Below are positions 9,510-12,632 of a stretch of 64,000 nt of DNA, piece by piece. Both the position numbers and the translations under genes were made by a program. Under the pieces are notes generated by a model, which searched no databases, had not been told where the DNA came from, and was given only the letters and a program-made list of their open reading frames with translations. This stretch comes from an uncultured archaeon (GTDB taxonomy: Archaea; Asgardarchaeota; Heimdallarchaeia; Heimdallarchaeales; Kariarchaeaceae): NCBI GenBank assembly GCA_964645535.1, contig CAZYCQ010000009.1, positions 1 through 64,000 of the forward strand. Direction: 5' to 3'. Within the stretch, counting starts at the first letter, position 1; each line of letters opens with the position of its first letter.

Positions 9510-10244
9510 ATGCTAGAACTTCCGGATTTCGAGCGTCTTATTCCAACCGATGACGAAAAACATCCTTTGTTAACATTGAAGGGCAAGGAACGTCGTAATT
9601 ATGCTATTTACTCATTTGGTGTGACTTTTTCAATTACGGTGCTCCTGTATGTTTTCCCGTCGTATTTTGCCTTGGAAATGCTAACAACTAAAATGAGTTA
9701 TTTCTTCCTTAATCTCTTTGGATTTAATCCTCGGTTGTTTATCTATGAAGACCAAACATCGACTTTAGGTTTTATCGATCGGACGTTATACAACTTGTAT
9801 GATTCATCTCGTGCTACCTATCCTGCCATCTCAATTGAAGGAAAAACCGGTGTTCCGAATTACTACATCATCATCCGTGCATGTACCGGCATGCAAGCTG
9901 GCGCTTTGCTTCTTGGTTTGATTTGGTCAACTCCTGCAAAGTTAAAGGATCGGATCAATGCCTCATTCATCGTCCTTGTTGTCCTATATATCGGCAATAC
10001 ACTTAGAATCGCTGCGATGATTGCAATTACGACGATATTGACCCAGGATTTCGGGGTAGGTCATGAATATGCATGGACCTTGGCTCACGACCGAATGGGC
10101 GAACCATTGGGATTTGTAGGTACCATTCTCTTCACGTTCATGATCGAGAAACGGCAGGTCAGGATACTTGACCCTATCACCATCTGGATTGATGTTCTCA
10201 ATCAAGATGTCTATCAACCACTCAAGAAAAGATTTTTCAATTGA
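9510..10244 (+). CDS. Archaeosortase/exosortase family membrane protease/transpeptidase
   Basis: Multi-pass membrane protein with IIRACTG (Cys), GNTLRI (Arg) and LAHD (His) in the order typical of the family. Confidence 0.85.
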   Translation: MLELPDFERLIPTDDEKHPLLTLKGKERRNYAIYSFGVTFSITVLLYVFPSYFALEMLTTKMSYFFLNLFGFNPRLFIYEDQTSTLGFIDRTLYNLYDSSRATYPAISIEGKTGVPNYYIIIRACTGMQAGALLLGLIWSTPAKLKDRINASFIVLVVLYIGNTLRIAAMIAITTILTQDFGVGHEYAWTLAHDRMGEPLGFVGTILFTFMIEKRQVRILDPITIWIDVLNQDVYQPLKKRFFN

Positions 10245-10308
10245 TTTGTGTGAAAAAGAATATAGTCTGCTCGAAAAGCTTATTTTTCCCGACAATTTTT
10301 GTTTAATC

Positions 10309-10959
10309 ATGAAAAGACTTGGCCTTCTGTTCATAATTCTCCTGCTAGTTGGAGTTTCGCCAGCATCTGCAGAGATTTTGCTAGATGAAAACATTGTAAT
10401 CGACACCTATTACAGATCTGATTTGGGAAATTCAACATATCCAATAATGCTATGGTTTCTTCATAACCAATCTCTGGATGAACCCAATTTAGTAATGAAT
10501 GCAAAAGTCATGGTTATTTCTGCAACTGATGAATTTTCTCTTAATTTAATTTTTGAGAAAAAATATGTTTCCAAAAATAATGGTTCATCTTCTATGTTCT
10601 CTCTCCAATTCAAGATGAAAATTCCCCTGTTAAATGAAGGAGACACAGTCGAGCTTTCATTCATGTGGAATCGTGCTTTAAATCGATCCGACTTACCTTC
10701 CAGATTTATTCCGCAACCCTCTCAACTCCATTATTTTGAGGACTTTGCGATTCAACTTGAGGAATCCGGTTTTTGGGACAATCATGTCGAGTTGGAAATT
10801 TCTCTTTGGACTTCCTTCAATTCCTCAAAGGTCAATAATTTGGATCCAATTTACCTAAACCATTCTATATCAAGGTCTGAAAACACTATGTCCCTTGGTT
10901 CATTATTGCTTTCTGGTATCTTTATTCCTGTTGTTATACTATGGAGGCGACTGAAATGA
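10309..10959 (+). CDS. Secreted protein with C-terminal hydrophobic + basic sorting-type tail
   Basis: Signal peptide MKRLGLLFIILLLVGVSPASA; tail SLGSLLLSGIFIPVVILWRRLK. Confidence 0.75.
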   Translation: MKRLGLLFIILLLVGVSPASAEILLDENIVIDTYYRSDLGNSTYPIMLWFLHNQSLDEPNLVMNAKVMVISATDEFSLNLIFEKKYVSKNNGSSSMFSLQFKMKIPLLNEGDTVELSFMWNRALNRSDLPSRFIPQPSQLHYFEDFAIQLEESGFWDNHVELEISLWTSFNSSKVNNLDPIYLNHSISRSENTMSLGSLLLSGIFIPVVILWRRLK

Positions 10960-11807
10960 AAAAAGGGCTGATTTTAGTTCTATTGATCTTTTTTTCTTTG
11001 GGCAAAGTGAATGCAGTTGATCTGAATGACAAGGTGGAACCACTAACCCTTTCCACCTTGATTGATTTTCATCCATATGATAGACAGGCGATCGATTCCA
11101 ATTCGTTTTCCGATTCAGGATACAATGCCTCCTCAACTCTTGCGAAAACAATTTGGATCGGTGGTTTCCCCTTAGTTGAAGGTATTGCGGATGATGTGGA
11201 TTTTACGAAACGACCAAATCTAATGTATGGAAATGTTTCAGTTCGTTTAATCTCATTTGATGGAAACACATCCCTTCAAATTTCTGTATTGGCTGTTCAA
11301 AGGACTGTTTCATTGGTTCCTGAACAGGGTTTTACTGTTTCTTCCACTACATGGAGGGGGATATTTTCCGAAATAATGGCCTCTAACGTTACTTTGACTC
11401 GTGCCTTTGAATTCCCCACTGCCAATGATGTTGTTCAATTGTCTAATGGAAGTGAAATCTGGCAGGAATCTTACAATTATCTCTTGAAGTTTACCAATTC
11501 CACGATAAACTATGGAATGTTCCAGGTGGTTCTCACATCAAATAACAATTGGACATATTCTGCAAGAGTTGAAGTAGAAATCCAAACGGTACACAATCCC
11601 GTATTCTTTAAAATAATGGAGGATCGTTATATGCAATTTTACCCTTCAACTTCTCTTGTATCTTCAGTAATCAATTCAACCCAAGATTCTGTGCAAATTT
11701 CAACTTCCTTACACTCCTCGTCTTCAAGAGATGAATCGTCCTATTCCTTGCTGGGATTGCTGATTTTACCTATAATCGTTATGCACCGGCGAAAAACCAA
11801 GAAATAG
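10956..11807 (+). CDS. Secreted protein with Ser-rich linker and C-terminal sorting-type tail
   Basis: ATGA overlap with the upstream stop; MKKGLILVLLIFFSLGKVNA; tail SSYSLLGLLILPIIVMHRRKTKK. Confidence 0.75.
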   Translation: MKKGLILVLLIFFSLGKVNAVDLNDKVEPLTLSTLIDFHPYDRQAIDSNSFSDSGYNASSTLAKTIWIGGFPLVEGIADDVDFTKRPNLMYGNVSVRLISFDGNTSLQISVLAVQRTVSLVPEQGFTVSSTTWRGIFSEIMASNVTLTRAFEFPTANDVVQLSNGSEIWQESYNYLLKFTNSTINYGMFQVVLTSNNNWTYSARVEVEIQTVHNPVFFKIMEDRYMQFYPSTSLVSSVINSTQDSVQISTSLHSSSSRDESSYSLLGLLILPIIVMHRRKTKK

Positions 11808-11990
11808 ATTGACTTGGCTAATTGCAAATTATATTTTTGTAATGTTCTTGGAAATATTTTGTTTATTTACATCTCTTTCAAGATGAGGTATGTTTGCTTT
11901 TGCTTGGAAATCTTCTTGTGTGATGATGATCCGAAGCTGAATCATTCCGCCAATAACAAAAAATAGGGGATTACTTTTGTAAAATTTTCT

Positions 11991-12632
11991 TTAATCATTT
12001 ATTTTGTTTCTCTTTCTTCTTAGATGATTTGAAAATAGTGCAAGCATTACACTTGAAACAATGAATTCAAAAAATGGGCTTGGTGTATCCTGAGTAATGG
12101 ATGTGTACTCTTCACCAGAAATCCATCCCTCCCATACTGTAAGCATATTTGTTGCTGTGACTTCTTGATATGAAGCTTTCTCATTTATAATCAGCAGGAC
12201 AGTTGCATAATATTGTGCAGTGGCATTAAGCATGTATGTTTCAACTGTTACATTTACGGCCTTTGAAAAAATCGTTCCTTCGAATACGTCAAGTCTGTCA
12301 AAATTCAATGTTTTGTAACCTCCGGTTATGTAGTTCTCATGATCCAACTCATCTGGTTGATCTGGTTTTTCCTTGAAAATATTTACACTCAGGTCTATTT
12401 GGTAAAGGGCGGTAACATCTTTTCCGAAATCATCGCAGGTGACATTTACCCACATCCAGTAATTTTGATTCTTGTAGAAATTGGAATCGATCAGTAATTC
12501 AACGTCAAAAATCGATCCTGCCTCTGTAGTCACAGAGGTATTTACACTCTTCCTCAATGCTTGGGATGGTGTTGTCAATGTGGTTGCAAGTAGCAATCCT
12601 ACAATCAATGCAAAAAATCCATGTTTGTTCAT
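11991..12632 (-). CDS. Secreted protein with C-terminal sorting-type tail
   Basis: Signal peptide; tail TPSPFFEFIVSSVMLALFSNHLRRKR. Confidence 0.75.
   Translation of the reverse strand: MNKHGFFALIVGLLLATTLTTPSQALRKSVNTSVTTEAGSIFDVELLIDSNFYKNQNYWMWVNVTCDDFGKDVTALYQIDLSVNIFKEKPDQPDELDHENYITGGYKTLNFDRLDVFEGTIFSKAVNVTVETYMLNATAQYYATVLLIINEKASYQEVTATNMLTVWEGWISGEEYTSITQDTPSPFFEFIVSSVMLALFSNHLRRKRNKIND

Follow-up and report, generated by a model that had tools for sequence, protein, structure and literature searches.

An archaeosortase gene lies in contig CAZYCQ010000009.1 of an uncultured archaeon of the family Kariarchaeaceae, within positions 1 to 64,000 (this whole stretch of 64,000 nucleotides is referred to below as the window). 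The question raised by this locus is which surface proteins the enzyme processes and by what C-terminal signal they are recognized. The gene (positions 9510–10244) lies next to three genes for secreted proteins; these and seven further proteins of the window end in a polar linker, a hydrophobic stretch and a cluster of basic residues. An earlier sequence-only reading had taken the gene and these tails for a lineage-specific Asgard sorting system, with a signal other than the Pro-Gly-Phe (PGF) signature of known archaeosortase substrates. The sortase is almost certainly a member of an already known family. On balance, it seems that the PGF signature has drifted in this lineage, part of the window tails being diverged signals and the rest being membrane anchors.

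Identity and Distribution of the Sortase

The forward-strand gene at positions 9510–10244 encodes a protein of 244 residues. It matches the NCBIfam equivalog model NF045528.1 "heimdallarchaeosortase" with 220.2 bits (E = 2.6e-65; 220.4 bits in the genome search), the curated cut-off being 130 bits. The match is nearly full length, residues 31–230 lying on profile positions 1–197 of 199. The exosortase/archaeosortase superfamily signature TIGR04178 is matched with 42.7 bits (cut-off 23), and the protein stays far under the cut-offs of ArtA, ArtE, XrtX and the remaining NCBIfam subfamily models. Pfam alone leaves the identity ambiguous, since it gives only a sub-threshold match to Exosortase_EpsH (17.9 bits). 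The motifs RACTG, NTLRI and AHD start at residues 123, 163 and 192. In an alignment of 31 homologues with 32–84% identity, Cys125, Arg166 and His193 are invariant or show one exception. The Cys-Arg-His residues pointed out earlier were thus confirmed, and judging by these motifs the enzyme is a Cys/Arg/His membrane protein of the exosortase/archaeosortase superfamily. No relative has had its structure solved, and weak haemagglutinin matches were dismissed as chance.

In a genome-wide profile search, no NF045528 family member besides this gene came up in the genome (3.6 Mb, 89% complete). A candidate second sortase at positions 35588–36301 was rejected. It is a polytopic membrane protein of 237 residues with no Pfam match, and its TIGR04178 score of 15.6 bits is at chance level; it looks like an unrelated protein.

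NF045528 is exceeded in 38 of the 41 genomes of the same order, mostly by a single copy, and in 51 of 201 Asgard genomes sampled, only one of which falls outside the same class. The sortase-bearing genomes include metagenome-assembled genomes of Candidatus Heimdallarchaeota, Kariarchaeota and Hodarchaeota. The heimdallarchaeosortase is nearly universal in the class Heimdallarchaeia. Of the proposed lineage-specific Asgard system, the Asgard-restricted archaeosortase therefore stands, while its novelty does not, as the enzyme and its signal are already catalogued as NF045528 and NF045529. The same reading had named a clean match to a described sortase/CTERM pair as refuting it, and the sortase gives such a match to the pair NF045528/NF045529. 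A full-text literature search on heimdallarchaeosortase, Heimdall-CTERM and heimosortase found no paper, so the pair seems to exist as curated database models only. The main review of archaeal surface biogenesis treats archaeosortases for Euryarchaeota only (PMC6098224).

Variation in the gene itself was also observed. In the family f6 relatives G116, G160, G172, G181 and G190, the sortase match lies inside an open frame of 488–509 residues (for example, G172:C51:34191-35510). Four of the five also show another, weak heimosortase-like match further downstream in that frame and may thus encode a tandem fusion of two sortases. Two separate sortase copies are often present in family f5 genomes.

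The Canonical Signal in the Genome

The signal model of the pair, NF045529.2 "Heimdall-CTERM", has 26 positions and a cut-off of 24 bits. A six-frame scan of the genome produced two matches over the cut-off and several just under it, ranging from 24.8 to 19.5 bits. These read ...GLPGFE-FSIGLF..., ...PLPGFE-WAAPL..., ...SGSPGFG-FVPAIF... and ...STPGFE-LIAL..., which makes the canonical signal PGF-like for this sortase family. In the genome, tails of the type [S/L/T]PGF number about nine, one of them on a cupredoxin (G000:C48:12482-13006), and all lie outside the window. The idea of a non-PGF system is not compatible with these proteins, which are encoded in the same genome as the sortase. The PGF-CTERM model TIGR04126 is not exceeded by any tail of the genome (best 16.6 bits, cut-off 24.5), and the Heimdall signal is therefore distinct from the haloarchaeal PGF-CTERM. 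Loki-CTERM (NF033507) reaches at best 17.9 bits in the genome against a cut-off of 19.9, and PEFG-CTERM 15.8 against 25; no gene for a Loki-type sortase was found in the genome.

The model detects few proteins in the relatives as well. Heimdall-CTERM exceeds its cut-off in just 17 of the 41 genomes of the order, 24 being without such a match, and many family f2 genomes have one match or none. It may be that one or a few substrates are usual for the sortase, as reported for some ArtA genomes (PMC6098224), or else that the model under-detects them.

Exchange between Canonical and Diverged Tails

The relation of the window tails to the canonical signal can be followed in homologous proteins. In a DOMON-like family with a canonical SPGF tail, SPGF, SPAF, SPGI and TPGFE occur within one genus, so the G and F of the signature are not fixed.

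The ABC-transporter substrate-binding protein encoded at positions 40861–42366 (forward strand; Pfam SBP_bac_6 and SBP_bac_8) ends in ...TNVPYPSVGFIFAFLNLVMAIFIT-RKRKN, a tail that scores 14.1 bits against NF045529. The three-part tail is present in all 29 complete copies from relatives, and in 28 of them a proline precedes the basic cluster by 15–24 residues. Canonical [VF]PGFT is found in the three family f4 copies, and VPF, IPL, VPY, TPF or SPF in the others. Among the 120 best database homologues, 97 are tailed and 23 tail-less, which makes the tail an add-on module in this protein family. The tailed homologues comprise 3 with PGF (one labelled Hodarchaeales), 81 with proline followed by a hydrophobic residue, 9 with proline elsewhere and 4 without proline. 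The tail-less ones include both matches labelled Methanofastidiosia, which are the only lineage-labelled tail-less matches. Many of the tail-less proteins, one Methanofastidiosia copy included, stop right after the binding domain. The labelled tail-bearing matches are all Heimdall-group or Asgard, most matches carrying no label.

The secreted protein of 328 residues at positions 62546–63532 (forward strand) has a diverged tail, ...SKAPINFFVPVIGLIAVAAII-RRRK, which reads ...KAPINFF... and scores 13.8 bits against NF045529; apart from this tail and that of the substrate-binding protein, the window tails gave no match to the model. Its homologues in G014 and G018 end in ...GGFLPGFTTYTALAGILATVAVYV-RRRK and read ...GGFLPGFTTY...RRRK, the G014 tail scoring 24.0 bits, at the NF045529 cut-off. 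Within this protein family, members from family f4 show LPGFT, and those from family f1 show APIN, LPLS or SPLG. Positional homology with canonical PGF tails is seen in both proteins, VPYP standing in place of the signature in the first and APIN in the second. At the level of these tails, the comparison shows a PGF signature that decays to a lone proline across homologous proteins. In several relatives (G014:C222, G006:C117, G011:C247, G015:C1:1336577-1346070), homologues of the two genes lie a few kilobases apart, the distance here being 20 kb; the two may belong to one transport locus.

The M14 carboxypeptidase at positions 37099–38928 (forward strand; Pfam Peptidase_M14, with a C-terminal hydrophobic stretch) gave no such positional homology. 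Among its homologues (L183-L203), those of family f2 have a proline-less membrane segment, after which about 25 conserved residues extend into the cytoplasm (...RKxKxxSKVWG.E.Y.E...), and those of family f1 share no motif where the hydrophobic stretch starts. This tail is most likely a plain membrane anchor. In the f1 copies, that of the window included, the f2 extension is lost and replaced by a Ser/Thr-rich linker and a short tail. Directly upstream of the carboxypeptidase gene, the stretch 35588–37083 holds the gene of the rejected sortase candidate and, after it, a gene that by eye reads as a glycerophosphodiester phosphodiesterase.

Genome-Wide Census of Tails

Open reading frames (ORFs) were called with a simple longest-ORF greedy caller rather than a trained gene finder, and the counts drawn from the resulting 3518 ORFs are approximate. 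To count as a tail, a C-terminus had to show 12 or more uncharged residues in a row, then a basic cluster and then the end of the protein, which was to have no internal membrane segment; this definition places the end of each tail at most 14 residues beyond the hydrophobic stretch. The controls were 357 internal membrane segments that fit the same definition in the out-to-in orientation. Tails were found on 124 of the 3518 ORFs (3.5%), and 110 of these have an N-terminal hydrophobic segment.

Proline followed by a hydrophobic residue occurs in the first eight positions of 54% of the tails vs 19% of the controls (odds ratio 4.9, p = 1e-12), which supports the earlier expectation of a statistically enriched motif. 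The pattern [LS]P[IFL] is found in 20% of the tails vs 3% of the controls, and PxP in 12% vs 0.3% (p = 1e-8 for each). The residues around the proline (L or S before it; F, I or L after it) mirror the canonical LPGF and SPGF. By class, 7 of the 124 tails carry PG[F...], with about two more by eye; 2, both inside the window, carry the near-canonical PxF[DE]; 66 have the proline-hydrophobic start; 24 have proline only deeper in the stretch; and 25 have no proline at all. The loose xP[F/Y/I] signal proposed earlier thus finds partial support, for some of the tails, in this enrichment and in the PGF exchange within two protein families. The alternative of a Ser-rich signal found no support beyond linker composition, the linkers of tail proteins being generally rich in Pro, Ser and Thr. 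The hydrophobic runs are as long as those of the controls (mean 18.1 vs 18.0 residues, p = 0.32), and runs of 14 residues or fewer make up 22% of the tails vs 26% of the controls (p = 0.34), which removes the earlier argument that short stretches mark a transient anchor.

A second recurrent feature is a proline 3–4 residues before the basic cluster (...AAIPVI-RKKRRN), seen in PGF and non-PGF tails alike, for example in homologues of the substrate-binding protein at 40861–42366. Proline 2–5 residues before the cluster is present in 23% of the tails vs 11% of the controls (p = 0.001).

Tail-Bearing Proteins of the Window

All ten ORFs listed by the sequence-only reading are present; their products have a signal-like segment at the N-terminus and, at the C-terminus, a polar linker that leads into an uncharged stretch and then a cluster of Lys or Arg. 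Their tails have the protein end within 12 residues and show the three-part design at the extreme C-terminus. PGF, PEF and PEP are absent from all ten, as that reading had stated. The strict census finds tails on 6 of the 62 ORFs of the window, a mild excess over the genome rate of 3.5% (Poisson p = 0.02); ten are found by eye. A proline stands at the place equivalent to the signature in five of the ten tails (VPYP, APIN, SPFFE, LPILFD and APFI).

Besides the two proteins with positional homology, near-canonical tails are found in two secreted proteins. That of positions 55981–56790 (forward strand) ends in ...DGLPILFD-TVFLLYFPALVLT-KRKFANEKR, comparable with the canonical GLPGFE. The orphan protein of 213 residues at positions 11991–12632 (reverse strand) ends in ...TPSPFFE-FIVSSVMLALFS-NHLRRKRNKIND, and SPFFE sits where canonical tails read LPGFE, its proline standing 19 residues before the basic cluster. 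The latter protein has no homologue in 20 relatives and no NF045529 match. The CARDB-domain surface protein at positions 12–1226 (reverse strand) has a very short hydrophobic stretch in its tail, ...NAPFIYTPVTAFLI-RRKQERKRDTRY. These three proteins, the last of them only perhaps, probably form the diverged class together with the substrate-binding protein and the 328-residue protein, so that four or five of the ten window tails would belong to it.

Ordinary anchors are the more likely explanation for the remaining five. One is the M14 carboxypeptidase. The DUF3179 protein at positions 6638–7837 (forward strand; Pfam DUF3179, 190 bits) ends in ...NRFFIFGILVLTISFMVTL-RWMWKRQKGE with no proline, and this tail is probably a plain anchor. 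The surface protein at positions 1278–2846 (reverse strand) likewise lacks proline in its tail, ...SEVSVLFLFGAIGIMVATLF-RKRKN, which may be an anchor too. This tail (1281–1346) scores 16.5–16.9 bits against Loki-CTERM, under the cut-off of 19.9. Three long repeats in tandem make up the protein, and ...YGNTTHFS[IV]WT closes each of them; it has 18 N-glycosylation sequons and no Pfam match. The other two are neighbours of the sortase and are described below. The earlier assignment of one signal to all ten proteins is thus to be divided: the M14 carboxypeptidase tail looks like a plain anchor, and four to five of the ten are probably of the diverged class.

Gene Neighbourhood of the Sortase

Two orphan secreted proteins are encoded on the forward strand next to the sortase. 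The first (216 residues, positions 10309–10959) ends in ...SENTMSLGSLLLSGIFIPVVILW-RRLK with no proline at the start of the hydrophobic stretch. The second (283 residues, positions 10956–11807) ends in ...DESSYSLLGLLILPIIVM-HRRKTKK, with proline only near the end of the stretch. Homologues of the second were found in 2 of 20 relatives, one close (in the sister genome) and one marginal. In the sister genome, G002, the homologues of both proteins remain paired as overlapping genes away from the sortase (L207:132-1753), that of the first lying on a contig other than the one with the sortase. Only the tail ends are common in this conserved pair: ...LFWRRLK in the first and ...ILPI... in the second. 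The substrate status of both proteins is doubtful. Two of the three sortase neighbours therefore lack proline at the start of the stretch, and the protein at 11991–12632 alone resembles LPGFE; at best, this one of the three is a likely substrate.

In ten relatives whose ORFs were called around the sortase, the three genes with tails are not kept as its neighbours, even by members of the same genus; the sister species have other genes there. Among the ORFs within 3-kb flanks of 65 sortase loci, 6 of 288 (2.1%) bear tails, which is not above the genome background. Thus, the proposed clustering of the archaeosortase with its substrates holds in this genome only: the tail genes beside the sortase are a peculiarity of this genome and no conserved operon. 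In family f2, the sortase lies in a conserved block with a topoisomerase and small unknown ORFs (L055, L056, L059, L061), and in several f2 genera it directly adjoins the large subunit of DNA polymerase D. The large conserved neighbour in f2 was considered as a surface substrate and rejected, since it is this polymerase subunit, followed by the topoisomerase. The f2 setting is a housekeeping neighbourhood without surface-protein genes.

Proposed Mechanism and Alternative Explanations

By analogy with ArtA of Haloferax, the sortase would recognize a three-part C-terminal signal (signature, hydrophobic stretch and basic cluster) after Sec export. The tail would then be cut off at the Cys/Arg/His site, and the protein would be transferred to a membrane lipid and so stay attached to the membrane. 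In the drifted form of the signature, often only the proline would be left, about 15–21 residues before the basic cluster, the next residue usually being F, I, L, V or Y. An ethanolamine lipid is implicated in sortase anchoring in Haloferax, and phosphatidylserine decarboxylase is needed for such a lipid. A PssD-like phosphatidylserine decarboxylase is encoded in the genome, which makes an ethanolamine-lipid acceptor possible and nothing more.

Several points weigh against drifted signals in the window. No window tail reaches the NF045529 cut-off of 24 bits, the best score being the 14.1 bits of the substrate-binding protein. The Pro-rich linkers raise the proline frequency, which is 0.08 upstream of the tails vs 0.04 upstream of the controls, and the proline-hydrophobic start is also present in 4 of 9 tails from Asgard genomes without the sortase. 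Sortase-bearing genomes are thus not marked out by the proline feature alone, whose enrichment by itself is no proof of a recognition motif. Between one and 52 substrates have been reported for genomes with ArtA (PMC6098224); since ArtA-type sortases are reported to have as few as one, the few PGF proteins could be the whole substrate set.

Tail abundance was compared in profile samples of 200–400 kb from four Asgard genomes without an exosortase-family match over the cut-off, plus 33 kb from a fifth. These samples gave 9 tails in 1031 ORFs (0.9%), and four other genomes with the heimdallarchaeosortase gave 28 tails in 895 ORFs (3.1%, range 1.5–5.6%). The difference lies in the direction expected if tail abundance is linked to the sortase. 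Against this use of the figures, sortase presence and lineage cannot be separated in the contrast, and the samples are small, those of 200 kb varying from 1.5 to 5.6%.

In a strict form of the signal, only the [S/L/T]PGF proteins (about nine, none in the window) would be processed. The ten window tails would then be permanent type-I anchors, and their prolines would come from Pro/Ser/Thr-rich stalks and helix capping. The failure of every window tail to pass NF045529, the proline-hydrophobic starts in sortase-less genomes and the substrate range of ArtA genomes (PMC6098224) all agree with this, as do the membrane segment with a conserved cytoplasmic extension in M14 homologues, tail runs as long as ordinary membrane segments and the missing association of sortase and tail genes across the 65 loci. 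Against such a strict signal stands the substrate-binding protein, whose homologues from relatives have the proline in place in 28 of 29 cases, in exchange with canonical PGF, and so does the likeness of the residues flanking the proline to LPGF and SPGF. Moreover, 24 of the 41 genomes would be left without a match over the cut-off, yet 38 of the 41 possess the sortase, and tails are 3–4 times commoner in genomes with the heimdallarchaeosortase. The strict signal is regarded as unlikely, although it is the most serious of the alternatives.

A bolder form of the drifted-signature explanation would reduce the signal to one proline about 15–21 residues ahead of the terminal basic cluster. Seventy or more proteins per genome (2–3% of the genes), solute-binding proteins included, would then be substrates, and lipid anchoring by the sortase would be the dominant route of surface display, comparable to that by glycosylphosphatidylinositol (GPI). 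So far-reaching a version is rather doubtful.

It is improbable that the signal is looser still and that essentially all of the approximately 124 tails, the proline-less and Ser-rich ones included, are cleaved and lipid-anchored as the main surface-anchoring route, as the sequence-only reading had claimed in full. The frequency of tails (3.5% of genes here vs 0.9% in sortase-less Asgard genomes), the short distance, by definition no more than 14 residues, from the stretch to the end of every tail and the three tail genes adjoining the sortase in this genome point in that direction. But 25 of the 124 tails are proline-less and 24 have proline only deep in the stretch, the M14 homologues bear long conserved cytoplasmic extensions, and the adjacency to the sortase is not conserved. 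Adjacent pairs of tail genes number 7 in the genome vs 4.2 expected, and all characterized exosortase and archaeosortase signals have a defined signature motif (PMC6098224).

Handling of the non-PGF tails by a different machinery, or another role unrelated to the sortase such as targeting to membrane protrusions, would suit the heterogeneity of the tails and the missing synteny with the sortase, but it is highly improbable given that the genome holds no second exosortase-family gene and that the exchange with canonical PGF tails among homologues favours one signal class.

The drifted PGF signature therefore remains the explanation to which we incline, with the window tails divided between diverged signals and anchors.

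Significance

Heimdallarchaeia are among the closest archaeal relatives of eukaryotes, and the Asgard cell surface is almost uncharacterized; how proteins are attached to the membrane and its protrusions bears on models of eukaryote origin. The sortase itself is nothing new, since NCBIfam already lists it by name. What is useful is the mismatch between the CTERM model and the genomes: in most genomes with the sortase, the curated Heimdall-CTERM model finds only a few substrates or none, and the signal in Heimdallarchaeia appears, from the tails compared here, to be much more degenerate than this model. Should the diverged tails truly be processed, the lipid-anchored surface proteins of Heimdallarchaeia would be far more numerous than annotation pipelines report, and if a single proline is indeed the minimal signal, the database model sees just about a tenth of the substrates. 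If the tails are not processed, they are many type-I membrane anchors of an ordinary kind.

Comparison with Known Systems

The closest described system is the NF045528/NF045529 pair itself. The sortase matches its model over the full length and well over the equivalog cut-off, the genome has CTERM tails at and near the model cut-off, and the three-part design stands at the extreme C-terminus of signal-peptide proteins. Unlike the catalogued signal, the window tails are without the G-F of the signature, their scores staying at about 14 bits or less, and most tails of the genome escape the model.

The ArtA/PGF-CTERM system of Haloferax volcanii (TIGR04125, TIGR04126) shares the superfamily signature domain with its conserved Cys and Arg, and the canonical Heimdall tails likewise have P-G-F followed by a hydrophobic stretch and a basic cluster. 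Cleavage and lipid anchoring are presumed for the Heimdall sortase from this likeness. The Heimdall enzyme, of about 240 residues, differs in reaching just 31.3 bits against the TIGR04125 cut-off of 75.

The Loki-CTERM (NF033507), PEF, PEFG, PIP and VPXXXP classes have the same three-part architecture. Some tails of this genome match Loki-CTERM or PEFG-CTERM weakly, all of them under the cut-off.

The eukaryotic GPI signal and GPI transamidase, to which the sequence-only reading had likened the system, show no homology to it; the GPI signal has no basic cluster, and the chemistry and the enzymes are other ones. The likeness would lie in the outcome only, a loosely defined hydrophobic C-terminal signal being swapped for a lipid anchor in both cases.

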